This document shows positions 19,149-56,919 of a stretch of DNA of 64,000 bases, in pieces; position 1 is the stretch's first letter; the number at the start of each line of letters is the position of its first letter. A program made the translations under genes and the position numbers. Below the pieces are notes generated by a model. That model made no database searches and had not been told where the DNA came from. It saw only the letters and a list, made by a program, of their open reading frames with translations. Origin of the DNA: an uncultured bacterium (GTDB lineage: Bacteria; Hydrothermota; Tepidihabitantia; Tepidihabitantales; Tepidihabitantaceae); the NCBI GenBank assembly GCA_965370805.1, contig CBDUVZ010000002.1, forward strand, positions 706-64,705. The letters are read 5' to 3'.

Positions 19149-20770
19149 TCATCTCTCCCGGTGGCGCTGCCGGTGCAGCAACTGGGCGAAGGCGTTCTTG
19201 ACTTCGGTGATACGCAGCACCCGGGACAGGAAGTAGTAGCCGCCGACCCCGAGCACGCCGGCGAGCAGGACCTGACCGGCCTGGGTCCAGATTTGGTCCG
19301 AACCGACGCAGGTTTCCTTACCGACGCAGGTTTCGTAGATACGGGATGTTACGTATGCCAGGATGCCCGCACCCAGCGACGCAGCCAGGACGCGCAGGGT
19401 CACGGAAGCAAGTTGTCTTCCGTGCAGGCCGCCGGTCCTCCGGCGCAGCAGGACGAAGAGAACGGTAAGGTTGAGGACCCCGGTGAATGCCGCGGCGAGC
19501 GGAAAAGACCGGAATCCGATGAAGCGCATCAGCGCCAGGTTGATCACGATATTGACCGCCACCACTCCGACTGCCACCAGGGCCGGGGTTTTCGTGTCGC
19601 CGAGCGAATAGAACCCGGCCGCGCAGTTGCGGGTGGCGGCCGCGGCCCAGATGCCCAAACAGTAGAGCATCAAAGCCTGGGCGGTCAGGGTCGTATCCGC
19701 GGCGGTAAACCGGCCGTGCTGGTAGATGAGGCGGACAACCGGATGCGCCAGGACCAGGAGCAGAATCGCGGCCGGAATGGTCAGCGCGGCGACCAGTCCC
19801 ATTGCATGGCGAAACCGGTCCCGGATGGCCGCGGCCGACTGGCCTGCGGCCTGGTGTGAGTATTCGGCAAGCGCAACCGACCCGATAGCGGCCCCGAACA
19901 AACCCGCTGGCAGGTGCTGAATCCGGTACGCGTAGCTCACCCAGGTGACCGAGCCCTGGGCGAGAAACGTCAGCAGGAAGGTGTTGATGAGGAAGTTCAC
20001 CTGCCAGGTGGCATAGCCGAAGACCATTGGAATCCACCGGGTGAAGACCCGGCGCAGTTCGGGATTCCTGAAATCAAGCACGGGCCGATAGCGGAATCCG
20101 TGCCGGTACAACCGGGGAACCTGGACCAGGAACTGGGCGACTGACCCGAGCGTTACACCGCACGCCATACCGAGAATCGGGTTGAGCCCGCGCGCCCGGA
20201 ACCAACCGTAAGCCAGGAGCGGCACGAGAATAGAGACGACATTGAACGCAGCCGGAGCCACCGCGGGAGTGAAGAACGTCCCGCAGGCGTTCAGGATTCC
20301 CATCGCCCAGGCCGCAAACACAACGAACAGCAGGAATGGGAACATGACCCGGGTGAGGAGTACGGTGAGTTGGAGCTTGTCCGGCTGGTCTGCGAACCCC
20401 ATCGCTACGAGCCGGACGACCTGGGGTGTGAAAACAATGCCGACAAGAACGACGACTCCAAGAACCAGGGCCAGGGCATTGAGCATACTGGCGGCGAACA
20501 GCCAGGTTTTCTCGCGGTCTTCCTCTTTCAGGCTCCGGACCAAAGCCGGGACGAACGCGGCGGAAAGCGCGCTCTCGGCAAACAGGTCGCGGAAGAAATT
20601 AGGGATGCGGAACGCGACATTGAAAGCATCGGTGGCGAACCCGACACCGAACAGACCGGCGAACACCGATTCCCGGACCAGGCCGAGGACGCGGGAAGCC
20701 AGGGTGCCGATTGAGAACAGTCCGACCCGACGGGTGAATCGAGCTTCGGTCGAGTCGGCTTCAGGGACCA
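19149..20770 (-). CDS. murJ: Lipid II flippase MurJ (MviN)
   Basis: MurJ-family sequence (FGVGFATDAFNVAFRIPNFFRDLF...). Start set at the internal Met (MVPEADSTEARF). The upstream 143 codons of the listed ORF are low-complexity and overlap the divergent gene. Confidence 0.85.
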
Positions 20771-26719: not shown

Positions 26720-27312
26720 CGTAACCTCCCTAATCATGGGGTCGGCGGGAATCCCGAGACAGTTGTCTCTGCTGTGGCACCCGAAGTAGTGCGCCGCAGA
26801 AGCCTCGGGGTTCCTATCCCTACCCTCAATCAGGATATGGGAGCAGCAACTGATGTCAAGGCATCGCCGCCCACCGCCAGCAGACTGGGTTTCAGTTCCC
26901 GGCGCGGGCCGATGCGGGCCTCCTGCTTCCGTTTCTGCCCCGGAACCTGACCGGCATACTTACAAACCACCTGGAATCGTGACTGACAGCGGTTCTGGCC
27001 GTAATCCTGGCATGGCTTCTGGATGTCAGGCTGCATAAGTATCTGAAAAGGCTGCTGGATACGACCTTGTCTGTATGGCTGGGGTACGTCCTCGTTGGGA
27101 TTCTGTAACCGATGCTGGCGGTTCATCTGGTTCGGCATCTGACCAGGGGGGTGACTTCCCTGGTGATTTAGATTGCGGCTCTGCAATTTCCGACCTGGCA
27201 ACCGTTAGTTTCCGGGTCCTTTCCGGCTCTATCTATGTAACGACACAGAAAGAAAGGTCGGGCCGGAGGAAACAAGCTGACAGATGGCTATGAAGAAAGG
27301 AGCTGATGACTC

Positions 27313-27681
27313 ATGGCAGTTGATGCAGAGAAGAGAATCCGACATTGGGACCAGAAGTTCAAGACCGACCGGGTCAAGGCGTCGCTGGACGCGCTGCGGC
27401 CCGGGATGCTTGAGCATGTCAAGCAGGCGTTTGCCGCGCTTGTCGAGATGGAGACCCAGGTGAAGCAGGTGCTGGACGGGGCCGGCGTTCAGACCATTCT
27501 GTACGTCGCTTACCTGAACTTCGGCCGGCAACTGCACAAGTTGTCGCGGCAGAAGAACGTCTCGGGTCCGTCGTTTGCGCTGGCGGCCCAGGTGCTGCTG
27601 GATAAATGGGCAAGTCGCAGCCTGGACCCGGATGTGCTCGCCACAATCAGGAACGAAGTCTTCAATATCGGCCCGCCGTAA
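27313..27681 (+). CDS. Hypothetical protein (122 aa)
   Basis: Genome-typical GC3 codon usage and an AAGGAG RBS. No recognisable motif. Confidence 0.4.
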   Translation: MAVDAEKRIRHWDQKFKTDRVKASLDALRPGMLEHVKQAFAALVEMETQVKQVLDGAGVQTILYVAYLNFGRQLHKLSRQKNVSGPSFALAAQVLLDKWASRSLDPDVLATIRNEVFNIGPP

Positions 27682-27739
27682 AAGAAAGAGAGGAGCCGGC
27701 AACCCATGCTGCCGGCTCCTGAAGGTCAGGCGGAACGAG

Positions 27740-30520
27740 CTACTCGACGATCAGCTTCCCGGTGCCGGACCATGTCCCCTGCTCGGCACGAACGAAGTAG
27801 ATCCCGGGCGACATGCCCTGCAGGTTCAGAGTGTATCCCGCGAAGCTGGGGATGGCCGTCTGTGTTCGCAGCAGCTTGCCGTCGGCATCGAAGACTTGCA
27901 CTATTGCGGCATCGGTTCCGGACAGGGCAATGCTCGCCTGGGTACGGGCCGGATTGGGCTGGATCACGAGTCGGGAACCGAACGGTATAGGTTGAAGCAG
28001 CGCCGGTTCGCGTTCGGTGCGGATGCCAGGACCGGTGCTGTAGTTGTAGCGCCAGAACTCCATGGTCTTGTTGCCCTTGAGAGCGAAAAAGAGGCCGTTG
28101 CCCAGGCTGACGAGGTCCGCGCCGTATTTCACGCGCTTTTTCCTGCCGGTGGAGCCGAACGACGGCATGGTGTCGAGTTCGTACCACGAGTCGGCCCAGG
28201 GCGAGTACTGCCAGAATTCCTGCGTGTTGCCACCCTTCAGGCAGAACATCTGGTTGATGAGCCAGGCGCCTGAGCCACCGTCCTTGAGTTTCTTGCGCCG
28301 GCCCGCCCTCCCGACGAACGGCATGTCGGCGAGTTGCTCAAGCCAGCTGCCATTCGCGACGTCGTAGGCAAAGGTCTCATTGTACTTGGACTTGCAGCAG
28401 TAGATGGTGCCGGCGCCATCATGGACAATGAAAGAGCCGTACTTGTACTTGTTCTTGCCCGAGTTGCCCAGTGGAGCCGAAGTCAGAGTACTGTCCCACA
28501 CGCCGGTGACGGTATTGTAGCGGTAGAACTCGTTCTTGTAGCCCTTCAGCAGATAGACCCAGCCGGTGTCGCCTAGGACAAGGTACTGCATCTTGGTACC
28601 GCCCTTGATTTTCTTCCCGGTTGCGCCGAGCGGGATGTTAGCCATTTGTGTCCACGCAGTGTCGGTCGTGCCGTAACGCCAGAACTCGACCGTGTTGTTG
28701 CCCTTGACTGCGTAAATGTGGTGGCCGCCGTCATTGCACAAGGCCCCGCCTTTGTAGACCTGCTTGTCGCTTGGACCGTCCGGAACGGATTTCATCTGCT
28801 CCCAGGCGTCAACTGCCACGTTGTACCGGTAGAAATCCCCGGTCTTATTGCCCTTGAGTGCGTAGATGAACCAACCATCAGACTGACTTGTGAGGGTAAG
28901 CGCTCCGCCCCGTTTGACTTCCTTGTTGCTGGGCGGCTTGGGCATGGGTGCCATTTCGGTCCAGCCGGGCGGTATCGGCGGGGCATCAACAGTGAAAAGA
29001 GCCTGGGAGGCATCGTTGGATGGAACCGCATCGCCGGCCAGCTCGGTAGAGCAGGAAGCCACGTAGCTGCCGAGCGTTGCGTTCCAGTTCAGAAAGGTGA
29101 CGTCCTGGGATGCTCTGGGCTGGAGGCCGTTGATGTAGATCGAGTCGATGTAGACAACAGAACCTCCTCGGCGTATCCGGAACTTGACGCCGAAGCTTTC
29201 GGTGAACCCGCCGTAGTTGCGGATACGGGCGCTCGGCAGGACTGGGCCGGGATAGATACTTCCGGTGGGTACCAGGATAGCTTCCACACCGACATTGTGG
29301 TGCGGGGGACCAACTACAAAGGAAGATCGGAGGATATCGTTCCGGGTATCCATGTCGTCGCTGTACCCGGTGCTGCAGGCCATGGCAATCGTGCCCAGCG
29401 TCTCGGCCTGCCATTCACGGAATGTCACGTCGCGAGTCACCCTGGGTACCAGGTTCTCGACGAGTACGCTGTCCAGCCAGGCCTGTATCCGGAAGTAGCA
29501 GTAGAACGCGGAAATAGTCTCGGTGCCGAAGTTCTTCACTCGTGCCTGAGGCGTAACGACCATGCCCGAGTCGACGGTGTCGGGTGGTAAAGTGATCCGG
29601 AAGACTCCGGCGTCCCGCACGACCACAGTGACGGCTGTATCAGCCCGGTCATTGGCCGGATTGATGTCGCCGGTGAGCATGGTTCTGCATAAAACATGGT
29701 TGACTCCACGCTCGGTGGCTGTCCAGTCACGAAAAGCGATACGACGGGTGCTGCCAGGACCCAGGTCGTCGACCAGAGTGGTGTCGGTGTATCCAGAGCC
29801 AATTGTCATTCTCGTCCAGAACGTCTCGGCACTGGCACCGTAGTTCTTGACCGTCGCCTCGGGTCTTACTACGTGATTCGAGTCAACCGCACCGATGGGC
29901 GTCTCGACTGTCAGGACCCCCACGTCAGACGAGGAGTTCATGCCGGTGACGCTGACGTCGTCTATTGCCCAGAAGGTGATGTGTTCGGTGATGCCGTCGA
30001 ACGCCCAGGCCAGGCGGACGTTCGATCTGTTCGCGGCCCAGGGAAGCGCAAGAACCTGCAGCTCCGGCCCGATGATACGCTGGTAGTAATCAAAGACCAC
30101 GTGTTCGAAGGGACCGCCATCCACCGAGCCGACGAGTGCGATCCGGTAGGGTTGGTCTTCCCCGCCGCCGTAGTACGTGGAGCACCGCAGGACGACGAGG
30201 TTGAAATCAGAGCAGTTAATAGACGGACTGATGAGGCTGTCAACGTTCTGTATTTCAGGCGGCTGTGAGTGCAACAGCGCGTACGGTGTCGCGTTGTCCG
30301 TCCACGGGTCCAGCTCGAGGTCAGGAGCCCGGTGCCAGTCATTGCTGCTGGTATCAGCAGGGCCGAATACGATTCGCCAGCCCGCGGGTGGTTGGACGGT
30401 CGACCAGGAACCGTTGAAGTTCTCGGAAAGCAGAATATCCTGGGCCGGGGCTGCTGCGGGAACGAACAATGCCGCCAGCAGTAACGCCGCCAGGGTCCTT
30501 AGAGTAATGAAGGATTGCAT
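27740..30520 (-). CDS. Giant secreted T9SS cargo protein paralog (~926 aa): signal peptide, choice-of-anchor-J/MAM-like N-domain, CARDB-like repeats, 4 Lys-rich repeats, T9SS CTD
   Basis: Start set at MQSFITLRTLAALLLAALFVPAAAPAQ (ATG 30520, AGGAAAT RBS). The longer listed ORF adds 123 low-complexity codons. The C-terminal half is collinear with the C-terminal half of 13262-18058. Confidence 0.8.
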   Translation of the reverse strand: MQSFITLRTLAALLLAALFVPAAAPAQDILLSENFNGSWSTVQPPAGWRIVFGPADTSSNDWHRAPDLELDPWTDNATPYALLHSQPPEIQNVDSLISPSINCSDFNLVVLRCSTYYGGGEDQPYRIALVGSVDGGPFEHVVFDYYQRIIGPELQVLALPWAANRSNVRLAWAFDGITEHITFWAIDDVSVTGMNSSSDVGVLTVETPIGAVDSNHVVRPEATVKNYGASAETFWTRMTIGSGYTDTTLVDDLGPGSTRRIAFRDWTATERGVNHVLCRTMLTGDINPANDRADTAVTVVVRDAGVFRITLPPDTVDSGMVVTPQARVKNFGTETISAFYCYFRIQAWLDSVLVENLVPRVTRDVTFREWQAETLGTIAMACSTGYSDDMDTRNDILRSSFVVGPPHHNVGVEAILVPTGSIYPGPVLPSARIRNYGGFTESFGVKFRIRRGGSVVYIDSIYINGLQPRASQDVTFLNWNATLGSYVASCSTELAGDAVPSNDASQALFTVDAPPIPPGWTEMAPMPKPPSNKEVKRGGALTLTSQSDGWFIYALKGNKTGDFYRYNVAVDAWEQMKSVPDGPSDKQVYKGGALCNDGGHHIYAVKGNNTVEFWRYGTTDTAWTQMANIPLGATGKKIKGGTKMQYLVLGDTGWVYLLKGYKNEFYRYNTVTGVWDSTLTSAPLGNSGKNKYKYGSFIVHDGAGTIYCCKSKYNETFAYDVANGSWLEQLADMPFVGRAGRRKKLKDGGSGAWLINQMFCLKGGNTQEFWQYSPWADSWYELDTMPSFGSTGRKKRVKYGADLVSLGNGLFFALKGNKTMEFWRYNYSTGPGIRTEREPALLQPIPFGSRLVIQPNPARTQASIALSGTDAAIVQVFDADGKLLRTQTAIPSFAGYTLNLQGMSPGIYFVRAEQGTWSGTGKLIVE

Positions 30521-30558
30521 GGCTATTTCCTGTACTTGGTCAGTATGCCTTTCATGAA

Positions 30559-30586
30559 ACATAGCCGATAGATGCCGGTCGTCAAT
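30559..30586 (-). promoter_or_regulatory. Sigma70-type promoter TTGACG-16-TATGTT (minus strand) for the giant paralog
   Basis: Read from the reverse complement. The -35 overlaps the stop of the dipeptidase gene. Confidence 0.4.
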
Positions 30587-31628
30587 CGGAAAGCCGAATC
30601 GGGTCTGCGGCCCGCGCAGCCGTGCTCCAGATCCGCAGGAAGTTCTCGCCGAGGATTCTCCTGACGTCGGGCTCTGAGAAACCCCGGCGCAGAAGCCCCG
30701 CGGTGACTGCCGGCATCCGGGTGACGTCCTCAAGACCTTTGGGCGGCGGGTCACTGAACCCGTCGAAATCAGAACCGAGAGCAACCGCGTCGACGCCGGC
30801 AACGGAAGCTGCATGCTCGATATGATCGAGCACGTCTTCGAGGGAGACCTTGCGGTAATCCTTGCGGAGGAAGTACGGCAGAAAGACAACTCCGATAACT
30901 CCGTCTGCTTCGCCCAGGACCCGGAGTTGTCGGTCGGTCAGGTTGCGGGGAAACCGGCGCAGGGCGCGACACGCGGAATGGGAACAGATGACCGGCGCGG
31001 AACTCGCAGCCAGCACGTCGCTGAAAGTCATGTCCGACGCGTGGGACAGGTCGATGAGCATCCCGAGCCGATTCATACGTTTCACCGCTTCGCGGCCGAG
31101 CCTCGTCAACCCCCGGCGGTGTCCGTCCCGGCTCATGCAGGAACGGGCGAACGGGTTGGAGTTGTTCCAGGTCAGGGTGAGGATCCGGACCCCGCGGCGA
31201 AAGAACCGGTCCAGGTTGCCGATGTCACCTTCCAGGGCGTGGCCGCCTTCGACTCCGAGGATCCCCGCAATCCGGCCCGAGGCTCTGATTGTCCGGACGT
31301 CACCCGGGCTGAGCGCCAGGGCAATCTCTTTCGGATAGCGACGGCAGATGCGTTTGAACTCGTCGATTGCCTTGAGGACAAAGGTGGCCCGTTTGCCCGG
31401 CCTGAACAGATCGGGGTTGGTCCAGATTGCGAACACCTGGGCATTGACTCCGCCTTCGCGCAGGCGGGGAATATCAATATGAAATGCGTCGGACCGCTGG
31501 GTGATATCCTTTCGGCCCCGGACGTGCTCGTACAAAGCATCGGTGTGCAGGTCGATGACAAGCGAGCGGTGGTGCAGGTCCAAGGTTGGTCTGATACCGG
31601 ATGCTACCGGTTCAGCCCGGGCGGTCAA
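30582..31628 (-). CDS. Membrane dipeptidase (peptidase family M19, renal-dipeptidase-like)
   Basis: M19 motifs: LVIDLHTD, ILGVEGGHAL, LTWNNSN, IDLSHAS, ICSHSACRAL, GSDFDG. Confidence 0.85.
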   Translation of the reverse strand: MTARAEPVASGIRPTLDLHHRSLVIDLHTDALYEHVRGRKDITQRSDAFHIDIPRLREGGVNAQVFAIWTNPDLFRPGKRATFVLKAIDEFKRICRRYPKEIALALSPGDVRTIRASGRIAGILGVEGGHALEGDIGNLDRFFRRGVRILTLTWNNSNPFARSCMSRDGHRRGLTRLGREAVKRMNRLGMLIDLSHASDMTFSDVLAASSAPVICSHSACRALRRFPRNLTDRQLRVLGEADGVIGVVFLPYFLRKDYRKVSLEDVLDHIEHAASVAGVDAVALGSDFDGFSDPPPKGLEDVTRMPAVTAGLLRRGFSEPDVRRILGENFLRIWSTAARAADPIRLSD

Positions 31629-31698: not shown

Positions 31699-33093
31699 AT
31701 GGTTGTGCTTCGAGCTACGGTCGTTCTCTTGCTGGCCGCTGAAGCAGCCGGCGGCCAGATGTTCTTCGGTTGCATCTGCTCAACCGATGTCCCTTTCGCC
31801 ACCGGTCCCAACAACGGCCACAAACTGGCCTTTCAGAGTGAGCTTATCGGGATGCCGGACGATACCGTAACCCTGGTCTTTCAGTCGAGCCAGAGCATCC
31901 ACAGTTGCATCGGCGTATTCGGACCCGGCGGCATCGATTGGACCCGACCGGTGTTGATGTATCCGGGACAGAATCCGGCAATCAACTTCGGCGCAGACGG
32001 TGACCGGCACCTGGTATGGCAGTTCCCGGATACTTCAGTCGGGTGGGAGGTGTACTACCGGAATTTCGAGTACCGGATGATGCCGGTGAACGTAAGCCGG
32101 ACCATGGGGAACTCAATGCACCCCGACGTCTGGGCCGACCATCTCGGGCTGGCCCATGTGGTCTGGGAAGACCATTCGCACGACAAGCCGAGAATCTATT
32201 ACCGCACCTGCAATGTCAGCGGCACGGTTGGTGATACTTTCCTGGTTTCAGTCGACACCGTCGGGTGCTGCTTCCTGCCTTCGATAGAGATGTTCCCAGC
32301 AGACAGCGCACTGGTCGTCTTGTGGCAACAGGTCGATTCGGGCAGCTACACTCCATATTCAATCAGGCGGCGGTGCTGCTGGCACGGGGTGTGGCAGGCC
32401 GAGGAGACTCTGGCCCAGCACCACTTCCCTCTGCGGCATCCGTCCCTTGATTGCGGCTCACCATGGGAGGGATTCTCCGGTGCCTGGGAGGACAGTTCAA
32501 GCGGAAACATGGAAGTCCATTTCGAAGGCGGGAACCCGGGCGGTGGCTATCCGACTTTCGGACGCTCGACCGCGCCGGTGCTGGCTACCCTGGGTGATGT
32601 CTGGTCCTATCTCTTCTGGCAGGAAGACTCGGGCGGAACCCGCGACATCCTACACCACTTTAACTACAGGTCCGGCTGGTATGCCCAGGGATCGCTGAGA
32701 CAGGCACTCCAGATTGAGGAGAGCGTTCGCTGGCCTGCGAATCTCGGAGCCCTGCTTGTCTGGACTCAAGGCGACGCCGAACCGTACAAGGTGATGTGCG
32801 CGTACTTCGACTATCCGATACCGGTTGCCGAGGAACGAGCGGTGCCGGTTTCAGACCGACCTGTATCAGTCCAGCCCAACCCGATGCACGACCGGACCGT
32901 AATCCGGCTCGCGGAAGGATTCTGCGGGAACGCGAATGTCGAAGTGACCGATGTCACCGGCAGGAAGATATGGTCCTGGACAGGGACGGACGCACAGGTC
33001 GTCTGGGATGGAAAGGGATTGCCTTCCGGCGTTTACTTCGTCCGGGCGCGTGCCGGAGGAAAGGAGGCGGTAGCCGAGGTTGTGAAGTTCTAG
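31699..33093 (+). CDS. Secreted hypothetical protein with T9SS C-terminal sorting domain
   Basis: N-terminal hydrophobic signal. C-terminus VSVQPNPMHDRTVIRL ... GVYFVRARAGGKEAVAEVVKF is CTD-like. Confidence 0.7.
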   Translation: MVVLRATVVLLLAAEAAGGQMFFGCICSTDVPFATGPNNGHKLAFQSELIGMPDDTVTLVFQSSQSIHSCIGVFGPGGIDWTRPVLMYPGQNPAINFGADGDRHLVWQFPDTSVGWEVYYRNFEYRMMPVNVSRTMGNSMHPDVWADHLGLAHVVWEDHSHDKPRIYYRTCNVSGTVGDTFLVSVDTVGCCFLPSIEMFPADSALVVLWQQVDSGSYTPYSIRRRCCWHGVWQAEETLAQHHFPLRHPSLDCGSPWEGFSGAWEDSSSGNMEVHFEGGNPGGGYPTFGRSTAPVLATLGDVWSYLFWQEDSGGTRDILHHFNYRSGWYAQGSLRQALQIEESVRWPANLGALLVWTQGDAEPYKVMCAYFDYPIPVAEERAVPVSDRPVSVQPNPMHDRTVIRLAEGFCGNANVEVTDVTGRKIWSWTGTDAQVVWDGKGLPSGVYFVRARAGGKEAVAEVVKF

Positions 33094-37823: not shown

Positions 37824-38665
37824 TTCAGGAGCCGGGATAGACGCCGGTCGGCCAGAATCCTGCCGCCGGTCTGGCATCCCGGGCAGTAGTAGGTAGTTGA
37901 TTCCTTGTAGCTGACGCGGCGGACCCGATCTCCGCACTTCGGGCAGGGCTGGTCGAGCCGGTTGTGGACCCGCAGGAACGTCCGGTCGCGGCGGTCGGGG
38001 AGATGGTCGAGCGTCTTGAGATGCAGGATTGCGTCGAGCAGGACCTTCTTTACGCCCATGTAGAGCCGGATGGACTCCTCGGGCTTGAGTGCCCCGGTCT
38101 GCTGGAACGGAGAAAGCCGGGCTTCGAACAGGATTTCGTCCGAGTAGCAATTGCCAATACCACCGACTGCCCGCTGGTCGGTCAGGAACCTCTTCACGGT
38201 CCGGTTGCGGCGCTTGAGCGCGGAACGGAGCCGGCTCAGGGTGAACTGCGGACCGAGCGGGTCCAGGCCGAGTTGGGCAATCCATTCCACGTTCTGCACA
38301 TCGGTGACGAGGTGGACCGCGACCCGGCGCTTGGAACCGGACTCGGCAACACGCAGGTCGGTCTTGTTGTCCAGATGCAGGGCGAGGAGATGGTGACGGG
38401 TCATCGGCTGGTTTGACGGGATGGTGATAAGACGGCCATTGAGCATCAAGTGGACGCAGAGATGGAGTTTGCTGTCGGTATTCAGGCTGAGGAACTTGCC
38501 CAGTCGCGAGATACTGCGGATATGGCCTTCCTTGAGTGCTTCGAGCGACGGGTCAACGGTCTTGAGCGTGGCGGGATGGCGCAATGTCGCGCCCAGGATG
38601 CGGCGCCCAGCCAGGGTCAGTCGCAGCCGGTCCTTGACGATTTCCAGTTCGGGCAGTTCAGGCAC
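37820..38665 (-). CDS. mutM: Formamidopyrimidine-DNA glycosylase (Fpg/MutM/Nei family)
   Basis: GTG start gives (M)PELPELEIV with the catalytic Pro2. C-terminal zinc finger CPKCG...YYCPGCQ. The longer listed ORF adds 65 non-homologous codons. Confidence 0.85.
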   Translation of the reverse strand: MPELPELEIVKDRLRLTLAGRRILGATLRHPATLKTVDPSLEALKEGHIRSISRLGKFLSLNTDSKLHLCVHLMLNGRLITIPSNQPMTRHHLLALHLDNKTDLRVAESGSKRRVAVHLVTDVQNVEWIAQLGLDPLGPQFTLSRLRSALKRRNRTVKRFLTDQRAVGGIGNCYSDEILFEARLSPFQQTGALKPEESIRLYMGVKKVLLDAILHLKTLDHLPDRRDRTFLRVHNRLDQPCPKCGDRVRRVSYKESTTYYCPGCQTGGRILADRRLSRLLK

Positions 38666-38716
38666 GCATAAGACTAGGAAAGGATGACGCTGCGTCAACC
38701 CGGTGTATTTCGCGAC

Positions 38717-38744
38717 TTGACAGCTCCCGGGAACCGGGTATGAT
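38717..38744 (+). promoter_or_regulatory. Sigma70-type promoter TTGACA-16-TATGAT upstream of the ABC exporter pair
   Basis: Read directly. Leader ~160 nt. Confidence 0.5.
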
Positions 38745-38909
38745 GGTGACTTCAAGCTGTGAGTTGTATGATGATCAGGAACTGAAATACCAACACCGGC
38801 GTTGAGCCTGTCGGGCAGTCCCGAGGCTTGCGCGGATGCACACAATCGGGTAAAGTCCAAACTGAAGACAAATCAGTATGTGTTTGAGATGAACTGGAGA
38901 GCGTAGACC

Positions 38910-43827: not shown

Positions 43828-46494
43828 TTAGCGTTGAATGACTATCCTGGCGGACTTGGCGGTTGATTCGTTTCGGATGAAGTAGACGCCGGATCTGAGA
43901 TGCCGGATGTCATTCGGGCCCGGCAGAAGGTCCATTACCTTCCGGCCGGAGATGTCGAGCAAAGACAATGCCGAATGCCGAGTGTCGAATGACGAATGCG
44001 GAAGAAGAAGTACGTGGCGCACGATGGTTGCGGTCAAGGGTCGGCGGATTGTAGCCACCGGCTTGTCTTCGGTTCCGACGTAGTATTCCACCCGGTACAC
44101 CGGGTAGACCGCGAGGTTGCCGGCAAACGGGGTGCCGAGCCCGAGGTTGTTGCTGGTCGCGGCCTGGGTTTCGAGCGGGACCGCGCAGAGGAAGTTCTCG
44201 CCCATCCAGAGCGTGTCCGTGCCGAAGGACCAGTCCCACTGCCACTGGATCGAGTCCGTGCCCTGGCCGGATGTCACCTGGGTCCATTCCCAGGCCTGGT
44301 GCGCGGTCTGGACCTGGACTATAGCGCCGAGCATCCGGGTCGAGTTCGGGGTCCAGCGGTTCACCGCTTTGCCGGTAATGACCGGGTCGCGCATCTGGGT
44401 CGTGTCGCCGGGCAGATGGTCGAACTCGGCTTTGACCCCGGTGTTCCACACCCGCACCGGGTTGATTACCGTTACACTGCTGTCGTTGGAGTTCGCGCAG
44501 TAAATCCTGTTGGTCACCGGGTTCACCGCAATCGCGTACGGCGCATTTCCTGCCGGCACGAGAACCGTGCTGTTCGTGGCTCCGTCGATCACCATTACGC
44601 TGTCGCTGCCGTAGTTCGCCACGTACACTTTGTTGGTTATCGGGTTCACCGCAATCGCGTACGGTGCGTCTCCTGCCAGCACGAAGGTGGTGCTGTTCGT
44701 TGCCCCGTCAATCACGGTCAGATCGTCGCTGCCGCCGTTCGCCACGTACACTTTGTTGGTGACCGGGTTCACCGCCACGGCCCGTGGTGCGTCCCCGACC
44801 GGCACGAGCGTGGTGTCGTTGGTAGTTCCGTCAATCACGGTCACGTTATCGCTCTGGAAGTTCGCGCAGTAGATCCTGTTGGTCACCGGGTTCACCGCAA
44901 TCGCGTACGGTTCCGTCCCGGCTGGCACGAGCAAGGTGTCGTTCGTGACACCATCGATGACCGTTACGTTATCACTCCAACTGTTCGCTACGTACACCTT
45001 GTTGGTCGCCGGGTTCACCGCCACCGCACGGGGCATGGTTCCGGTTGGAACCAGAGTCGTATCGAGGGTCGCTCCGTCAATCACGGTCACATTGCCGCTG
45101 CTGCCGTTCGCTACGTACACCTTGTTCGTTGCCGGGTTCACCGCAACGGCCCATGGCCCGTCCCCGGCCGGCACGAGCGTGGTGTCCATCGTGACACCAT
45201 CGATTACTGTCACGTTGTCACTCAGGGAATTCGGCACGTACGCCCGGTTCGTCACCGGGTTCACCGCAATCGCGCGCGGGTTGTTTCCGGCCGGCACGAG
45301 CGTGGTGTCGCCGGTGGCGCAGTCGATTACGGTTACGTTGTTGCTCGTCACGTTCACCACGTAGGTCTCGTTTGTCACCGGGTTCACCGCCAGTGCCCGT
45401 GGCCGGGCCAGCGTACGTACTCTCGTGGTGCTGTACGTGATACCGTCGATCACGGTCACGTTGTCGCTGCCGCTGTTTACCACGTACACTTTGTTGGTCA
45501 CCGGGTTCACCGCAACCGCGCACGGTTCGGTTCCAACCGGCAGAAGCGTGGTGTCGTTTGTCGCTCCGTCGATCACCGTCACATTGTCGCCGTGCCAGTT
45601 CGTCAGGTACACTTTGATGGTCACCGGGATCACCGCAACCGCGCAGGGCTGGTTTGCCGTCGGGACGAGCGCAGTGTCGTTCGTGGCCCCGTCAATCACC
45701 GTCACATTGCTGCTGTAAAAGTTCGCGCAGTAAATCCGGTTCGTTACCGGGTTCACCGCAATCGCATACGGTCCATTTTTTGCCCGCACGGTTGTTGTGT
45801 TGTTGGTGATTCCGTCAATCACCGTCACGTTGTGGTCGTTGAGATTCGCCACGTAAATCCTGTTGGTCACCGGGTTCACCGCCACGGCCCAGGGTTTGTC
45901 GCCGACCGGCACGAACGTGGTGTCGTTGGTTGCCCCGTCAATCACGGTTACGTTGTCGCTGCCGCTGTTTACCACGTACACTTTGTCGGTCACCGGGTTC
46001 ACCGCAATCGCGCGCGGCTCTGTTCCGACCGGCACGAGCGTGGTGTCGTTCGTGGCCCCGTCGATTACCGTTACATTGTTGCTGCTGTCATTCGCCACGT
46101 ACACCTTGTTGGTCACCGGGTTCACCGCCACGGCGTGCGGCGCGTCTCCGGCCGGCACGAGCGTAGTGTCGTTCGTCGCTCCGTCAATCACCGTTACGTT
46201 GTCGCTGCCGCGGTTCGCCACGTACACCTTGTTGGTCACCGGGTTCACCGCAACCGCATACGGCTCTAATCCTGCCCGCACGCGGATGGTGCTGTTCGTA
46301 GCCCCGTCAATCACCGTTACGTCGTTGCTGCCCGCGTTCACCACGTACACCTTGTTGGTCACCGGGTTCACCGCAACCGCCTGCGGGTTTTCTCTGACAT
46401 TGACGGTCGCCGTAACCCAGTCCGCCGTTGCCGGCGCTGCCGTGATTGCCAGCAGCACCAGGGCTGCGGTCAGGGCATGTCTTACGTTCTGCAT
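43828..46494 (-). CDS. Large YVTN-family beta-propeller repeat protein (~17 repeats) with T9SS C-terminal sorting domain
   Basis: Signal peptide MQNVRHALTAALVLLAITAAPATA. 41-aa repeats VNPVTNKVYVAN..SDNVTVIDGATNDTTLVPAG..P.AVA. CTD ...GVYFIRNESTAKSARIVIQR. Confidence 0.8.
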   Translation of the reverse strand: MQNVRHALTAALVLLAITAAPATADWVTATVNVRENPQAVAVNPVTNKVYVVNAGSNDVTVIDGATNSTIRVRAGLEPYAVAVNPVTNKVYVANRGSDNVTVIDGATNDTTLVPAGDAPHAVAVNPVTNKVYVANDSSNNVTVIDGATNDTTLVPVGTEPRAIAVNPVTDKVYVVNSGSDNVTVIDGATNDTTFVPVGDKPWAVAVNPVTNRIYVANLNDHNVTVIDGITNNTTTVRAKNGPYAIAVNPVTNRIYCANFYSSNVTVIDGATNDTALVPTANQPCAVAVIPVTIKVYLTNWHGDNVTVIDGATNDTTLLPVGTEPCAVAVNPVTNKVYVVNSGSDNVTVIDGITYSTTRVRTLARPRALAVNPVTNETYVVNVTSNNVTVIDCATGDTTLVPAGNNPRAIAVNPVTNRAYVPNSLSDNVTVIDGVTMDTTLVPAGDGPWAVAVNPATNKVYVANGSSGNVTVIDGATLDTTLVPTGTMPRAVAVNPATNKVYVANSWSDNVTVIDGVTNDTLLVPAGTEPYAIAVNPVTNRIYCANFQSDNVTVIDGTTNDTTLVPVGDAPRAVAVNPVTNKVYVANGGSDDLTVIDGATNSTTFVLAGDAPYAIAVNPITNKVYVANYGSDSVMVIDGATNSTVLVPAGNAPYAIAVNPVTNRIYCANSNDSSVTVINPVRVWNTGVKAEFDHLPGDTTQMRDPVITGKAVNRWTPNSTRMLGAIVQVQTAHQAWEWTQVTSGQGTDSIQWQWDWSFGTDTLWMGENFLCAVPLETQAATSNNLGLGTPFAGNLAVYPVYRVEYYVGTEDKPVATIRRPLTATIVRHVLLLPHSSFDTRHSALSLLDISGRKVMDLLPGPNDIRHLRSGVYFIRNESTAKSARIVIQR
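43966..44001. repeat. Heptanucleotide REP-like element, copy G, in frame inside the CTD
   Basis: caatgccgaatgccgagtgtcgaatgacgaatgcgg encodes HSSFDTRHSAL, replacing the EASGVKRGASCV segment of the paralog 42442-43818. Confidence 0.6.
44450..46400. repeat. Intragenic tandem array of ~16 near-identical ~123-bp units encoding the YVTN repeats
   Basis: Recurring strings such as gggttcaccgcaatcgcgtacgg and ccgtcaatcacggtcac at ~123-nt spacing, seen directly. Confidence 0.7.
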
Positions 46495-47553
46495 CTGCGC
46501 CTCCTTCGGTGAATCCGGAACAAGCCCGGATTACTCTTCATATTCCTGCATATTCGATTTCGTCCAAGCGGCTTTCTTGTCAATCTTCATAGTGGGGTGG
46601 GGATAGGCACCGGAGAACCGTTGCCGGTCCCTGTCCGCTTCTGGTGGTTCTTCTCCACAGGCCTAACTTCTATCGGAATCGGGCGGGATGTCAAGCGCAG
46701 TACTCGCGGGCCGGGCGTGGGCTTCCGGTAGAACTACCAAGCATCTGAGGAAAGGAGAGCCGCAGAGAATGTACCGTTTCGTTTGTATCGACGACAATCG
46801 TGAGTTGGCCGCGCATCTGACGTGCCTTGGGTTTGGGCAGGTGTCCGGGTGGGTGTCCCGGTGCGTCATGGTCGGTGTTGCGCCGACCGTTGTCTTGCCC
46901 GGTGTGGGCGGCGCGATCCGTGCCCTGGAGCTGACAGTTGAGCGTGCCGCTGCCCGAGTCGCTGTCCTTGCCGTGATTCTTGCCGCAGGTCGGGTCCCAT
47001 CCGTTGCCGGAGCCGTTGGCTTGAGCCGGTATGTTGCCGGTGATGCGTTGGTTACCGTGGCTCGGGTCGGGGCATCGGCGGCCAGGTGGGTCGTCAGGGT
47101 CATGGCTACGGTGGGGGTAACCGGGTAGGTGATAAGGTAAGACACCGGCAGAAGTTAGGCGGAATCGCGTTTCCGGACTGGAGGGCGGGTCCGAGAGACA
47201 CATCAGCAGGTATGATAACTCTCTGAAGTGTAAGTGGTAAGTGGTTCGGACGCGGCGATTGATGGTCCGTCGGTATCGTGAGCGGCCACTGGTGCCGGCA
47301 CGGCGGTGACCGTGAAAACGCCCGGGATTCGATGGGTGGACCGGGTGCCGTTAGTCGGCTTGGCCCAGGCCTTGCGCCGGATCTTCCGGCAGAGTCCGGA
47401 GCCGGAGCGGATGCGGAGCATGGCCGAGGCCGTAGTTGACATCCGGGCAGATTCGGGTAGAAACTATGGTGAGGAATCAAGGAGAACAACCGTGTTGTCG
47501 ACGCGCGGGCGGACGGGAAGCTCTCACGGCAATCCGCAACCAGAGGAGGCGAG

Positions 47554-48423
47554 ATGAAACGTAGCATCGTAGTTCTGTTCCTGCTGGTCCTGGCGACCGG
47601 TCCGGTCCTGGCCGATACCACCTACGTGGAGATCGGCAGTCCCTACATCAAGAACGCAATTCCGTTCTGGGGCGACGTACACGACGCGTGCCGGCTGCAA
47701 CTGCTTTATCTCCAGAGCGAGATAGACCAGGCCGGGACGATTGTCGCTTTCGGTCTGTGCTGCACCGAAGACGCGCCGAGCTGGTTCCGCAAAGTCAGGG
47801 TCAAGCTCTGTCACACTCCGGCGTCGTCCCTGGTTTCCACCTTCCAGGCCAACTACGGCGGCAATACGCCCCAGACCATCCTCAGTGCCGATTCCCTGCT
47901 CGTTGGCACCGGCCAGAACCTGACCTGGTACTATTTCCCTTCGGACTTCGTGTACAACAACACCGACAATCTGCTCCTGGAGATTACCTGGCGCGGCGAC
48001 GAAGGTCGTCGGGTAAGAGTCTGGCGCAATCCCAACGGCGCCGACCGCCGTTGCCATGCGATGAACGATACCGCGGTCAGCGGCACGGTCGATGACGTCG
48101 AGGCATACTACGCCCGGATCGGGTTCACCCCCACCGGCGCGACCGAACCCCGGGAGATCGGACTCATGCCGCTGAGCTTCAACGTAACCCCGACGCACGG
48201 GCGCGCGCCATTCCGGATATCCGGCTCAACCTTGCTCGCGGGCAAGCCGGAACTGACCATCTGGGACCCGACCGGCCGGCTGGTCGAACGGCTGAACCCG
48301 GTTCTGAACCAGGGCCGGCTCGAAGCGCGCTGGAACGCAACCGGTATTCCGGCCGGGGTGTACCTCTGCCGGCTGCAGTCCGGCGCGAGCTGCGCGACCC
48401 GCGTCCTGACCCTGATGCGCTAG
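47554..48423 (+). CDS. Secreted hypothetical protein with T9SS C-terminal sorting domain
   Basis: Signal peptide MKRSIVVLFLLVLATGPVLA. AGAGGAGG RBS. CTD ...GVYLCRLQSGASCATRVLTLMR. Confidence 0.7.
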   Translation: MKRSIVVLFLLVLATGPVLADTTYVEIGSPYIKNAIPFWGDVHDACRLQLLYLQSEIDQAGTIVAFGLCCTEDAPSWFRKVRVKLCHTPASSLVSTFQANYGGNTPQTILSADSLLVGTGQNLTWYYFPSDFVYNNTDNLLLEITWRGDEGRRVRVWRNPNGADRRCHAMNDTAVSGTVDDVEAYYARIGFTPTGATEPREIGLMPLSFNVTPTHGRAPFRISGSTLLAGKPELTIWDPTGRLVERLNPVLNQGRLEARWNATGIPAGVYLCRLQSGASCATRVLTLMR

Positions 48424-53386: not shown

Positions 53387-55078
53387 ATGTTCAAGACCAT
53401 GATTGCGATTCTGGGTGTGGTGCTGGTTGGCACGCTCACTCAACCGGCCAGGGCGAGTGATATCGAGCCGGGCGCTGCGACCGATTCGGCCCCGCCGTAT
53501 CAGCAGGGGTTCCCGGTGTACACCGGCGGCAATTGCAGTGAGACATCGGCCCAGGTTGCCGACATCGACGGTGACGGTGATATGGAAGTGCTGATCGGCG
53601 GCGGGCAAAGCCTGAGGGTGTTTCACCATGATGGCACAGTGGTAGCCGGATTCCCGGTTTCGGTCGGCGGGCACGCCACCCAGACCGCGGCGATTGCCGA
53701 CATTGACGAGGATGACGAGGTGGAAATCGTCATCGCCGGTCAGCGTTCCCAGTTGTACGTATACAAAGGCGATGGCACGCTCAAGTCTGGCTGGCCCCAG
53801 TCCTTGGGCGACGACGACGGTGCCGCCTGTTCGCCGGCCCTGGCTGACTTGGACGGTGACGGTGACCTCGAAATCGCTATTGGTACGTTCCGGGACCTGA
53901 ACGGCAACAACGGGTACATCCCGGCCCGGTTCTACGTTTTCCATCACGACGGAACTATCTACGAAGGCTGGCCGGTTGATTCGGTCGACCATTTCTCCGT
54001 ATCTTCGACCCCCGCGATTGGAGACCTAGACGGTGACGGGGACCTGGAAATCGTTGTCGGGGGCAGGGATTCTCACAACTTGTGGGCGTTCAACGCGGAC
54101 GCGACGATTGTACCGGGCTGGCCGGTGCATGTGTCCGGGCTGGTGGAATCATCGCCGACCCTGGCTGACATTGACGGGGACGACGACCTGGAGGTATTCC
54201 TCGCCACGGCGGCGGAGCGAGTGTACGCATTCCATCATGACGGCACGCCGGTTGAAGGCTGGCCCCAGTCGATGGGGTACGGGAATCAGCGTTCGTCGCC
54301 GGCCCTGGGTGACATCGACGGGGACGGTGACATCGAGATAGTATGCGGGTCTGCGGGACGCAAGATGCACGCCTGGCATCATGACGGCACGCAGGTTGAG
54401 GGCTGGCCCCAGGAAACCGGGTCGTTCACGCAGGGCACGCCGGCGCTTGGGGACGTTGACGGTGACGGGGACATTGAGATTGTCGGGGGTGCGTATTCCG
54501 GGGTCTACGTCTGGCACCACACCGGCGCGCTGTTTCCCGGATACCCGCTCCCCACCGGTTGGTCAAGGTCCTCGCCGTGCCTGGCCGACCTGGACCTGGA
54601 CGGGGACGTGGAAATACTCATTGGTTCTTTGGATGATTCGCTCTTTGTCTGGGACCTGCCCGGAGCCTATGATACAAGCAACGTCGAATGGGGCGCGTTC
54701 CGGCATAACCTGTGGAACACGGGGTTCAACAGTCGGACCTACGTTGGGGTCGCGGAGGAGAGGGTTCCAGAGTTCGAGGGGTCCAGGGGTCCAGGAGGCG
54801 GAGCGGGACTGGTGCAGAACCACCCCAATCCTTTCGCCCGGTCGACCGAAGTCAGCTATCAGTTGAAGGTCAGGTCGAACGTGAGCCTGAAGGTGTATGA
54901 TGTCGGCGGGAACCTGGTCAGAACCCTGGTGGATAGGATGCAGGAACCCGGTCAGCATAGCGTTATCTGGGATGGCAGGAGTTCGTCAGGCGCAGATATG
55001 GGGGCCGGCACGTACTTCTGCCGGCTGGCAGCCAATGGCCGTGCCGATACCGGCATCCCGCACTTGGTGAAGCGATAG
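53387..55078 (+). CDS. FG-GAP/VCBS (integrin-alpha-like) repeat beta-propeller protein with T9SS C-terminal sorting domain
   Basis: Signal peptide. Eight repeats of ADIDGDGD.EIV..G....V.HHDGT...GWP. CTD LVQNHPNPF...GTYFCRL... Confidence 0.8.
   Translation: MFKTMIAILGVVLVGTLTQPARASDIEPGAATDSAPPYQQGFPVYTGGNCSETSAQVADIDGDGDMEVLIGGGQSLRVFHHDGTVVAGFPVSVGGHATQTAAIADIDEDDEVEIVIAGQRSQLYVYKGDGTLKSGWPQSLGDDDGAACSPALADLDGDGDLEIAIGTFRDLNGNNGYIPARFYVFHHDGTIYEGWPVDSVDHFSVSSTPAIGDLDGDGDLEIVVGGRDSHNLWAFNADATIVPGWPVHVSGLVESSPTLADIDGDDDLEVFLATAAERVYAFHHDGTPVEGWPQSMGYGNQRSSPALGDIDGDGDIEIVCGSAGRKMHAWHHDGTQVEGWPQETGSFTQGTPALGDVDGDGDIEIVGGAYSGVYVWHHTGALFPGYPLPTGWSRSSPCLADLDLDGDVEILIGSLDDSLFVWDLPGAYDTSNVEWGAFRHNLWNTGFNSRTYVGVAEERVPEFEGSRGPGGGAGLVQNHPNPFARSTEVSYQLKVRSNVSLKVYDVGGNLVRTLVDRMQEPGQHSVIWDGRSSSGADMGAGTYFCRLAANGRADTGIPHLVKR
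54762..54800. repeat. GGGTCCAGG/GGGTTCCAG plus heptamer repeat element, copy I, in frame immediately upstream of the CTD
   Basis: gagggttccagagttcgaggggtccaggggtccaggaggcgg encodes RVPEFEGSRGPGG before LVQNHPNPF. Confidence 0.55.
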
Positions 55079-55123: not shown

Positions 55124-55543
55124 GTGACCTCAGGGACCGGCCGGATTATTGACGTCAACCTGAACCGGTTGACCGAAGGCCTGAGGGTTGTCGAAGACGT
55201 TGTCCGGCTCGGACTTGAGCGCAAAGGGCTGTTGCGCAGCATCCGGGCGCTACGGACCCGGGTCGGGAAAGAAACCCGGGCATTACGCAAGCGGGTTGTA
55301 CTGAGCCGGGACAGCGAGACCGACCCCGGCCGGGGCGACCGGTTCGACCGCACCGGACGCAAGAGCCTTGACGATGTGCTGCTGGCCAACTTCAAACGGG
55401 CCCAAGAAGCGGCGCGGGTACTGGAGGAAGTGTTGAAGATTGAGGAGCCGCGTCTGAGCGTGAAGTTCAAGGCGGTTCGGTTCCGGCTTTATGATCTGGA
55501 GAAACAGGCGGTAGAGGCATCGAATCGAAGGGAGCAATCGTGA
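55124..55543 (+). CDS. Hypothetical conserved protein (~140 aa), translationally coupled to the downstream T9SS gene
   Basis: Genome-typical codon usage. RIIDVNLNRLTEGLRVVEDVVRL motif of unknown family. Stop overlaps the next start (GTGA). Start uncertain: the ORF track begins at TTG 55088. Confidence 0.4.
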   Translation: MTSGTGRIIDVNLNRLTEGLRVVEDVVRLGLERKGLLRSIRALRTRVGKETRALRKRVVLSRDSETDPGRGDRFDRTGRKSLDDVLLANFKRAQEAARVLEEVLKIEEPRLSVKFKAVRFRLYDLEKQAVEASNRREQS

Positions 55544-56919
55544 AGAAAGCAATCCTGGTCTGTCTGACGATTCTTGTGGCTGTGGCGAGCGCCCAGAGTT
55601 TCTGGACCGATCGCAAGCTCGTCACTACCCGTCCCAATTGGGACTACTGGTGGCTGAATGTTCGGATTGGTGTGGATCAGTTCGACACGGTGTACTGCGC
55701 GGTCTCCCGGTACAACTACTCGCAGGATGACCCGAAGCATGACCTGTACGTGCTGAACAGCGACGGTGACACGATGCGGTCAATGACATCATGGCCGGGC
55801 TACTTCAACCAGCCGATTATCAAGGATGCCGACAGCAACAACATCTATGTGGGCCAGCCGCTGATGGGTCAGGGTCCGAACAGCAGCCCGCACATGGATG
55901 CGGGTGTGACGGATGATTCCAACTGCGTCAGCACCACCAATGCCCATGGCAGCAGCATCAAGTTCACCCGGCTCGGACCGAACGGTGACAGTGTTATCTG
56001 GCTTCAGACCATCCATACCGGAAACCCGTGGACCGGCCGCTCAAGCCTTGCTATCGACCCGCGCGGCTGGCTGCACTGCGCTTACGCGGACAGCATGCAA
56101 TATCTCGAGTACGGATTCTCCACCGACAGAGGAGCCACCTGGACCTGGGACAGACTTGATAACATCAGGGTAATGTCTCATGCCCGGGTGGTGGCTACCC
56201 CGGACACCTGCGTTCACTTCGTCTACCGGACCTGGACTTCCGGCGACCAGTTGCGCTATCTCAAACTCAAGTCGGACGGTTCGGTAGCGGTAGGCGGGTC
56301 GATATTCAGCCAGGGCGGGACGAGATGGTGCCCGAACGTAGCGGTGGATACGTCCGGGAACCTACGGGTTGTGTTCGGCGACGGTTCCACCAGTGGCCAC
56401 AACGTCTACTACACCGTGCTACGCGGGGACCTGGACAACGGCGGAGACCCGGTGCCGGATTCGATTCTGACCCTGGTTCCCGACACGATAATCCAGTACG
56501 ATGCGGTAAGGGTTGCCGGTCCGAAGATCTGCGTTGATTCCCGGGACCGGGCCCACGTGATGTTCGAGCAGGGGACCTACGGACGCCACCAAACCAAGAA
56601 CGTATACCACATCCGGGAAGGTCTGCCGGGTGCGGTAGCCGAGCGCCCGGTGCTCAAGCCGAAGTCGATGCTGACGGTCTCCCCGAACCCGGTGTGCAAC
56701 CGAACCACGGTTCGGTTCAGCCTGAGCAAATCCGGGCCGGTGCGGCTTTCACTGTATGACGTCTCGGGTCGCAGAGCCATGGGAATCGCGGCCCGCGTTT
56801 TCGCTGCCGGCTCTCATTCGGTTTCAATGCAACGGGAAGAATTGCAGACCGGTGCCTATTTCCTGGTGCTCGAAACCGGAACCGAACGGCAGCAGACCAA
56901 GCTGGTGGTAACGGACTAG
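55540..56919 (+). CDS. Secreted hypothetical protein (beta-propeller/BNR-like) with T9SS C-terminal sorting domain
   Basis: Signal peptide MKKAILVCLTILVAVASA. CTD VSPNPVCNRTTVRF...GAYFLVLETGTERQQTKLVVTD. Confidence 0.75.
   Translation: MKKAILVCLTILVAVASAQSFWTDRKLVTTRPNWDYWWLNVRIGVDQFDTVYCAVSRYNYSQDDPKHDLYVLNSDGDTMRSMTSWPGYFNQPIIKDADSNNIYVGQPLMGQGPNSSPHMDAGVTDDSNCVSTTNAHGSSIKFTRLGPNGDSVIWLQTIHTGNPWTGRSSLAIDPRGWLHCAYADSMQYLEYGFSTDRGATWTWDRLDNIRVMSHARVVATPDTCVHFVYRTWTSGDQLRYLKLKSDGSVAVGGSIFSQGGTRWCPNVAVDTSGNLRVVFGDGSTSGHNVYYTVLRGDLDNGGDPVPDSILTLVPDTIIQYDAVRVAGPKICVDSRDRAHVMFEQGTYGRHQTKNVYHIREGLPGAVAERPVLKPKSMLTVSPNPVCNRTTVRFSLSKSGPVRLSLYDVSGRRAMGIAARVFAAGSHSVSMQREELQTGAYFLVLETGTERQQTKLVVTD

Follow-up and report, generated by a model that had tools for sequence, protein, structure and literature searches.

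What occupies the 1,059 nucleotides (nt) between positions 46495 and 47553 of a 64,000-nt stretch of DNA from an uncultured bacterium of the Hydrothermota (contig CBDUVZ010000002.1; this whole stretch is hereafter the window), and what gives this gap its unusual strand composition? On a rough gene map, it is the longest gene-free stretch of the window, and it separates two divergent genes for secreted proteins, one of 888 amino acids (aa) on the minus strand and the other of 289 aa on the plus strand. A preliminary description of the gap, made from the sequence alone, offered three candidate explanations, namely, a structured non-coding RNA or long 5' leader, a decayed gene, or a small atypical, perhaps foreign gene. 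We find that the gap is the shared control region of the two secreted-protein genes, with ordinary promoters at its ends, and that these promoters enclose an insert to which we assign a probability of about 0.45 of being the remnant of a gene that was rearranged or acquired, or else an open reading frame (ORF) of doubtful function. Neither an RNA gene nor a riboswitch-type leader appears to be present, and the region likewise does not look like a replication origin or a recognizable mobile element.

The case for a shared control region begins at the two ends of the gap, each of which carries a -35/-10 pair facing the adjacent gene (Table 1). The two pairs together form a 27-nt inverted repeat with 22 of the 27 positions matching (score 29 versus 15.4 +/- 2.2 in 300 shuffles), the limits of which coincide exactly with the -35 TTGACA and the -10 TAGAA(G/A), both outward-facing. 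Three matches to TTGACA-N14-18-TAGAA are found in the window against 0.06 expected, the third copy being located upstream of gene 21617, and TTGAC(A)-N16/17-TAnnnT sites, in which the spacer is G+C-rich, are present at 2040, 13009/13106 (back-to-back), 21556, 31628, 31652, 48479, and 58374. Such promoter-like sites usually lie 45-68 nt before a start codon, and their recurrence suggests that a classical sigma-70 promoter with short leaders is in use in this WOR-3 lineage. All these promoters are consensus matches, with the start sites placed according to their position. One additional good match, TTGACAGCTCCCGGGAACCGGGTATGAT at 38717 (+), is found in a 489-nt gap (38286-38774) that is flanked by minus-strand genes on both sides, with no plus-strand gene mapped. 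Another inverted repeat, 46661-46676 / 47145-47160 (GCCTAACTTCTATCGG / CCGGCAGAAGTTAGGC; 14 of 16 positions), the left arm of which shares sequence with the left promoter at its -10 end, is, by estimate, near chance level when taken alone. A candidate third copy of the promoter and leader, at 46721-46771, was discarded, given that its score in an unbiased local alignment (18, compared with 16.7 +/- 2.1) was not significant.

The comparison with relatives shows what is peculiar to this copy of the region. Searches with the 289-aa protein recovered, in addition to itself, 28 homologs with 33-66% identity (the closest at 66%, 61%, and 55%); three of these carry an organism label and belong to metagenome-assembled genomes (MAGs) of candidate division WOR-3, and the others are metagenome or Logan sequences. 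Eight loci from four lineages (L001-L008), with homologs of 287-290 aa that are 48-66% identical, were sampled, and in these, the intergenic region upstream of the homolog is 245-280 nt long. The divergent neighbor is a large gene for a cargo protein of the type IX secretion system (T9SS) in L002, L003/L005, and L006/L007, and where the neighbor is divergent (L002, L003, and L006), back-to-back TTGAC boxes are 28-55 nt apart, as opposed to 742 nt in the window. Given this close spacing of the -35 boxes in the relatives, the 741 nt between the promoters (46695-47435) are extra, lineage-specific DNA. The distance from the -35 box to the start codon of the 289-aa homolog is 46-50 nt in four lineages (L001, L002, L003, and L006) versus 118 nt in the window; for the equivalent of the left gene, it is 147 and 205 nt in relatives. 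In its plan, then, the gap is an ordinary back-to-back divergent sigma-70 region, with outward -35/-10 pairs of the usual form followed by a 5' untranslated region (UTR), a Shine-Dalgarno sequence, and the gene, the same arrangement that is found at 13009/13106 and upstream of the homologous gene in the relatives; it departs from this plan in the distance between the -35 boxes, which is 28-97 nt in the known cases, and in the likeness of its two spacers (22/27 over the whole repeat).

The proteins of 267-290 aa with a signal peptide make up a family of their own; its labelled members come from WOR-3 MAGs, and Pfam recognizes nothing in it but a weak sorting tail. Three of the four lineages have the family member arranged head-to-head with a large T9SS cargo gene, encoding either a beta-propeller protein or an M1 peptidase, across 245-280 nt, and this pairing may be functional.

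From the positions of the promoters, transcription would start near 46660 on the left, producing a 5' UTR of approximately 166 nt for the 888-aa gene (46495..46660), and near 47470 on the right, with a 5' UTR of approximately 84 nt for the 289-aa gene; folding of the two UTRs yields z = -0.24 and z = +0.46, respectively. Because the promoters fire outward, the skewed core of the gap lies upstream of both transcripts. The right UTR would include a possible upstream ORF of 21 codons, the only portion of the 83-aa ORF 47306-47557 that is downstream of the right promoter, this promoter being located inside the 83-aa frame. The preliminary description singled out the 83-aa ORF for its ATGA overlap with the downstream gene, which is indeed present, and for genome-like codon usage, which is not (synonymous-codon score 0.07, log-odds -0.11 to -0.20). 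The 21-codon ORF could be translated. It shares with coupled upstream ORFs and leader peptides the small size, a Shine-Dalgarno sequence of its own, and an ATGA stop on the start of the 289-aa gene; unlike these, it is not conserved, because it would not fit into the 46-50 nt available in the relatives, the UTR lacks an attenuator-like structure (z = +0.46, as given above), and the 289-aa gene has its own strong Shine-Dalgarno sequence.

The G+T excess that had drawn attention to this locus is real: G+T is 0.578 over the whole gap of about 1 kb and 0.635 at 46750-47130, and 46798-47197 is the 400-nt segment with the highest G+T in the 64 kb (0.638; mean 0.499, sd 0.052). The GC skew in the gap peaks at +0.30, and the G+T skew does not extend beyond the 741 nt that the promoters enclose. 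Some real genes of the window contain stronger skews in the other direction (G+T falls, for instance, to 0.26 at 16.6 kb), and the value in the gap therefore stands out only by its sign and among non-annotated DNA; the gene at 16.6 kb encodes 1,635 aa and has an extremely C+A-rich coding strand. Neutral replication skew was considered as the cause of the G+T excess and rejected: right of 19 kb, the plus-strand GC skew at 4-fold sites is merely +0.07 to +0.09, in genes on either strand, and a bias this low does not explain the skew of the gap.

The same 4-fold sites reveal another feature of the window. The plus-strand GC skew at these sites is -0.12 to -0.50 in every gene left of 18.1 kb, and right of that point, it averages +0.07 in minus-strand genes and +0.09 in plus-strand genes, with a few individual genes negative. 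The cumulative GC-skew minimum is at 19159, with an abrupt switch of strand composition within 18000-19200, where the genes are those for PAC2, MurJ, and DeoC, with no dnaA or dnaN. This switch could mark the origin or the terminus of replication, or else a point at which differently skewed pieces of the MAG contig were joined.

The skew of the gap has an internal structure that was overlooked in the first reading from the sequence alone. A 3-base periodicity is significant at 46769-47128 (chi2 33, p = 9e-6), and in 180-nt windows at 46880-47119, chi2 reaches 29.5 (p = 5e-5), compared with a median of 22.5 in real genes. The skew is phase-specific, with G at 0.55 in one codon phase and the T excess in the other two, and the G+T skew is, therefore, the composition of a codon-like sequence. 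Periodicity of this strength points to coding ancestry or to a live gene of atypical composition.

Native codon usage does not accompany this periodicity, and the earlier failure to discern a convincing coding frame is borne out: against a local-composition null, the best frame scores -0.22 bits/codon, whereas real genes score +0.27 +/- 0.12 (minimum -0.04). Each of the two main ORFs has a synonymous-codon score of 0.03-0.05, versus 0.31 +/- 0.09 (minimum 0.11) for real genes and 0.04 +/- 0.13 for their antisense shadows. In a comparison of a 3-periodic second-order Markov model with a non-coding null, the gap obtained -1 bit on the plus strand and -6 bits on the minus strand, versus +30 +/- 14.5 for real genes, and the preference of the model for the plus strand amounted to 5-9 bits, versus 42 +/- 17 for real genes; taken together, the strand tests (GC by phase, synonymous score, and Markov model) indicate no clear coding strand. 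The ORF starting at 46769 does have the atypical T-ending codons ascribed to it, 25% versus 14%, and when the codons of this ORF and of the one starting at 47306 are compared with the genome, both prove non-native. The attribution of the open frames to scarcity of stop codons was also essentially right, the stop-free runs of 219, 163, and 153 codons exceeding those of dinucleotide shuffles by a marginal amount at most (P = 0.09, 0.08, and 0.02), where the value of 0.02 belongs to the third-longest run.

Two ORFs on opposite strands, encoding 119 aa (plus) and 170 aa (minus), are exactly in codon register with the periodicity. The frame of the minus ORF is open over 219 codons (47350-46694), and its stop codon is inside the -35 box of the left promoter. 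Upstream of the ATG at 46769, the plus ORF has the Shine-Dalgarno sequence that the preliminary description considered excellent, AGGAG (46753-46757); the sequence is there, but its distance from the start is 11 nt, as against 4-5 nt in the neighboring genes. For the minus ORF, the -10 element of a weak promoter-like site (47240-47212) ends 8 nt before the ATG at 47203, a placement from which a leaderless or near-leaderless mRNA would be expected. AlphaFold2 (AF2) modeling without an alignment produced, for the plus ORF, one model with two helices and a predicted local distance difference test (pLDDT) value of 63.7, the other four being at 34-42, and for the minus ORF, a pLDDT of 39.8.

Searches identified no homologs of either ORF. 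The only match of the plus ORF is P0031, a 100% identical 119-aa call in a Logan assembly of the same organism, and the only match of the minus ORF among 5.8 billion proteins is itself (P0001, in the NCBI and ENA collections); given that P0001 is on the minus strand and P0031 on the plus strand, two gene callers have picked opposite strands. A phmmer search of 1.84 billion representatives with the minus ORF recovered itself together with P0032 and P0033, which were rejected as homologs, being fish GTPase repeats that match low-complexity Gly/Ser/Asn stretches; they resemble proteins of the GIMAP/AIG1 type. These large collections were queried with the 119-aa and 170-aa ORFs, and the Thr/Pro-rich third frame (minus strand, 46663-47145) was compared with Pfam, NCBIfam, PHROGs, and PDB, in which neither the two ORFs nor this frame found a match. 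Comparison of the insert with plasmid and phage DNA by blastn yielded no match, viral scans for the insert were empty, and so was a metagenome scan with the 219-codon minus frame; a metagenome scan with the alignment of the 289-aa gene, using two N-terminal patterns, returned no confirmed match. In the window, there is no second copy of the segment, the matches obtained being tandem units of the 888-aa gene that overlap the left edge of the query. A pseudogene of a known family, for which the preliminary description had proposed a blastx check, was not found either: blastx against the window proteins, tblastx against the window and loci L001-L008, and tblastn involving the ORFs of the loci gave at most 36 bits, all compositional. 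The motif TTCCGGTAGA is present in 15 copies versus 2.8 expected, 4 of them in the region; it was dropped as a signal, as GGTAGAA is mostly antisense of genes and shows no intergenic enrichment. Its antisense reading, TTCTACC, may reflect Phe-Tyr codons.

The tests for an RNA were negative as well. Rfam at the gathering score gave 0 matches over the whole 64-kb window, for families including 6S, riboswitches, OLE/GOLLD/HEARO/ROOL, and group II intron domains, and ARAGORN found no tRNA or transfer-messenger RNA (tmRNA); the visual impression that tmRNA, RNase P RNA, signal recognition particle (SRP) RNA, and tRNA are absent thus holds. At a permissive threshold (E <= 10) over 46300-47750, there were three matches at chance level (17-19 bits, E = 1.2-5), two to eukaryotic miRNA precursor families and one to a mammalian pRNA family. 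The minimum free energy (MFE) of the 821 nt 46655-47475 corresponds to z = -1.36 (plus) and -1.21 (minus) relative to dinucleotide shuffles. Locally, a hairpin pair in 47290-47435 is more stable (MFE -77.6 kcal/mol, z = -2.99, 0 of 200 shuffles on the plus strand; z = -2.44 on the minus strand), but is marginal once the approximately 40 windows of the sliding scan are allowed for. With no Rfam, tRNA, or tmRNA match, weak folding, and promoters that point outward from the core, the proposal of a structured non-coding RNA or a long 5' leader is unsupported.

How, then, is the insert to be read? Under the reading that we favor, it would derive from coding sequence and be specific to this lineage, as a gene remnant or as an ORF in which native codon usage never became established, and the 170-aa minus ORF and the 119-aa plus ORF would most likely not be normal functional native genes. 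Its likely effect is passive, in that it would space the two promoters apart; it would come with longer 5' UTRs, one of which holds the 21-codon frame that may be coupled, as an upstream ORF, to the 289-aa gene. The two other suggestions of the preliminary description, a decayed gene and a small atypical or foreign gene, are both compatible with the combination of gene-strength periodicity, non-native codons, no homologs, and gene calls on opposite strands, and the evidence does not favor one over the other. The insert has much in common with the ORFans and gene relics of GC-rich genomes, namely, long stop-poor ORFs, no homologs, atypical codons, a low-confidence fold, and disagreement between gene callers, but differs from them in having a 3-base periodicity as strong as that of real genes, which is unexpected for a random ORF. 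Several observations weigh against this reading of the insert or of the gap as a whole. Gene-strength periodicity could equally mean a live gene of unusual composition; a Shine-Dalgarno-like site precedes the plus ORF, and a promoter-like site is placed exactly for a leaderless start of the minus ORF; the likeness of the two promoters extends to 11 of 16 spacer positions, beyond what promoter function needs; the promoters have been recognized by consensus rather than by mapping of transcription start sites; and the nearest relative in the searched collections has 66% aa identity in the neighboring gene, so that the term lineage-specific rests on distant comparisons.

The main rival reading is a functional orphan gene between the promoters, encoding either the hydrophobic 119-aa protein or the disordered 170-aa protein. 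The skew would then be amino-acid and codon composition, and the atypical codons would stem from a recent foreign or de novo origin. Both ORFs share the register of the periodicity, the periodic core is roughly coextensive with the plus ORF, each ORF was called by a gene finder, and the AGGAG upstream of ATG 46769, the promoter-like site before ATG 47203, the 219-codon minus frame, and the best pLDDT of the plus ORF (63.7) all fit such a gene. What makes it a rather unlikely, albeit credible, solution is that the synonymous scores match those of antisense shadows and fall below those of every real gene, that the Markov model scores both strands no better than the non-coding null and prefers one over the other only slightly, that no homolog was found among the 5.8 billion proteins or the 1.84 billion representatives, and that the Shine-Dalgarno spacing of 11 nt, the pLDDT of the minus ORF (39.8), and ORF lengths near chance likewise speak against it. 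The periodicity also bears on whether the segment encodes a new non-coding RNA or belongs to a long structured leader of one of the flanking genes, because it is unexpected in an RNA gene; the plus-strand version of such an RNA would be rich in G+U and the minus-strand version in C+A. A long gap without native coding signal in a compact genome, the hairpins at 47294-47431 (z = -3), and z = -2 to -2.5 for the plus-strand window 47000-47200 would suit an RNA, and the weak minus promoter at 47240-47212 could drive a long transcript into the 888-aa gene; yet no Rfam family of note was matched, the z-scores of the whole segment are only -1.4 and -1.2, the hairpins are marginal, the consensus promoters put the segment outside both flanking transcripts, and nothing alike is found in the 245-280-nt regions of the relatives, which leaves this a distinctly improbable explanation.

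The inverted repeat calls to mind an inverton, or else a non-autonomous transposable element, in which the 27-nt repeats would be recombination sites or terminal repeats around a segment of 741-795 nt. The repeat is statistically real, the segment has the size of an inverton, the internal promoter-like site could switch targets upon inversion, and a setting between divergent secreted-protein genes is described as typical of invertible promoters (PMC11892184). The invertons detected by approaches of the PhaseFinder and DeepInverton type likewise consist of inverted repeats around a sub-kilobase segment beside genes for secreted or surface proteins. Here, however, the repeats are complete outward promoters, so that inversion would change little; they end exactly at the -35/-10 hexamers of the promoter form that is normal for this genome, and they are imperfect, with 5 mismatches in 27. 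Regular promoters flanked by inverted repeats are a recognized class of inverton false positives (PMC11602134), and the relatives have the same back-to-back promoters without the insert. No recombinase or transposase is present among the 39 proteins scanned at 11.9-63.3 kb, the flanks of the segment show no target-site duplication (GCCTAAC versus ACTATGG), and neither the window nor the plasmid, phage, viral, and metagenome collections contain another copy. In view of these findings, a mobile or invertible element is very improbable. A replication origin has practically no chance of being the answer and was rejected on the skew minimum, the DnaA-box counts, and the 4-fold-site skew: the gap is long and non-coding, the genes diverge from it (all minus at 33.6-46.5 kb and all plus at 47.5-60 kb), the GC skew is rising, and there is a DnaA-box match of 8 of 9 at 46651, but the cumulative GC-skew minimum is at 19.2 kb, with the skew climbing steadily through 19-64 kb, the 4-fold-site skew is of the same sign on either side of the gap, DnaA-box matches are unclustered and occur at chance (7 in the window versus 5.9 expected), and neither an AT-rich unwinding element nor dnaA or dnaN is found. 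Across these readings, it seems improbable that the segment is not inert, that is, that it yields a young protein (de novo or captured) or an RNA from its own weak promoter, or that the 741 nt are invertible; if they were, inversion would swap which of the flanking cargo genes receives extra upstream transcription. All in all, the gap harbors a real compositional anomaly that most likely has an ordinary cause, an orphan ORF or a gene relic in an expanded divergent promoter region.

Table 1. Features of the divergent gap and its flanking genes, in window positions.
Feature	Position	Strand	Description	Basis
Left promoter	46667..46694	-	-35 TTGACA 46694-46689, 16-nt spacer, -10 TAGAAG 46672-46667	
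Right promoter	47436..47463	+	-35 TTGACA 47436-47441, 16-nt spacer, -10 TAGAAA 47458-47463	
Inverted repeat, left arm	46668-46694	-	TTGACATCCCGCCCGATTCCGATAGAA	
Inverted repeat, right arm	47436-47462	+	TTGACATCCGGGCAGATTCGGGTAGAA	
Segment between the two -35 boxes	46695..47435		741 nt; plus strand G 0.39, T 0.21, C 0.25, A 0.15	
Periodic core	46820..47180		codon-like 3-base periodicity; seat of the skew	180-nt windows, phase table
Plus ORF	46769..47128	+	119 aa; 21% Val, 18% Ala, 12% Gly	ORF list
Minus ORF	46691..47203	-	170 aa; Gly/Pro/Asp/Ser/His-rich, predicted disordered	ORF list, frame translation
Weak promoter-like site	47212..47240	-	TTACCA-N17-TATCAT; 1 found versus 0.3 expected	consensus scan
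Hairpin pair	47294..47359 and 47362..47431	either	long, imperfect; directly upstream of right promoter	
Possible upstream ORF	47492..47557	+	21 codons; GTG start, AGGAG (47480-47484) 7 nt upstream, ATGA stop overlap	
Left flanking gene	43828..46494	-	888-aa secreted beta-propeller protein	ORF list, Pfam, internal DNA repeats
Shine-Dalgarno AGGAGG	46500-46505	-	5 nt before ATG of 888-aa gene	sequence
Right flanking gene	47554..48423	+	289-aa secreted protein; signal peptide, weak T9SS sorting-domain match	ORF list, Pfam/TIGR
Shine-Dalgarno GAGGAGG	47543-47549	+	before start of 289-aa gene; strong	sequence

The genes on both sides had been described as T9SS genes. For the 289-aa protein, the matches to sorting-domain models are below the cut-off (E = 0.13 for Pfam and 0.016 for TIGR04183), and two of its homologs carry PF18962; the 888-aa protein has no Por_Secre_tail match, its C-terminus resembling one by eye. 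Pfam recognizes YNCE/lactonase/NHL beta-propeller repeats in the 888-aa protein, and at the DNA level, its gene is made up of tandem units of about 123 nt that are 74-90% identical; the blade array is recently expanded or homogenized. The window at large is rich in genes for large secreted proteins with T9SS C-terminal sorting domains, among which Por_Secre_tail, CARDB, Kelch, and FG-GAP domains are represented (13151-18058, 27740-30889, 31699-33093, and 55540-56919, and also 53387-55078). The second gap of about 1 kb in the window, 26738-27739, contains a plausible gene for 122 aa (27313-27681, plus strand); its product is of ordinary, globular-looking composition without a Pfam match, and the gene, though small, is likely real. 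The preceding 26738-27312 (about 575 nt) is another long non-coding stretch, and the minimum of the cumulative G+T skew falls there, at 26971.

The finding itself matters little beyond this genome, but it illustrates that a striking skew in a long, seemingly empty gap can be a codon-like footprint rather than an RNA gene, and that two divergent promoters can be all there is to an inverted repeat found on either side of such a gap. For annotation, it means that the 170-aa hypothetical protein in the NCBI and ENA records and the opposite-strand call of 119 aa in another assembly are both doubtful. A live orphan gene, if the insert proved to be one, would add a modest case of a gene born or captured within an uncultured WOR-3 lineage. 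The small by-products of the analysis, namely, the conserved pairing of the 287-290-aa family with large T9SS cargo genes and the promoter form of the phylum, could possibly be of use.

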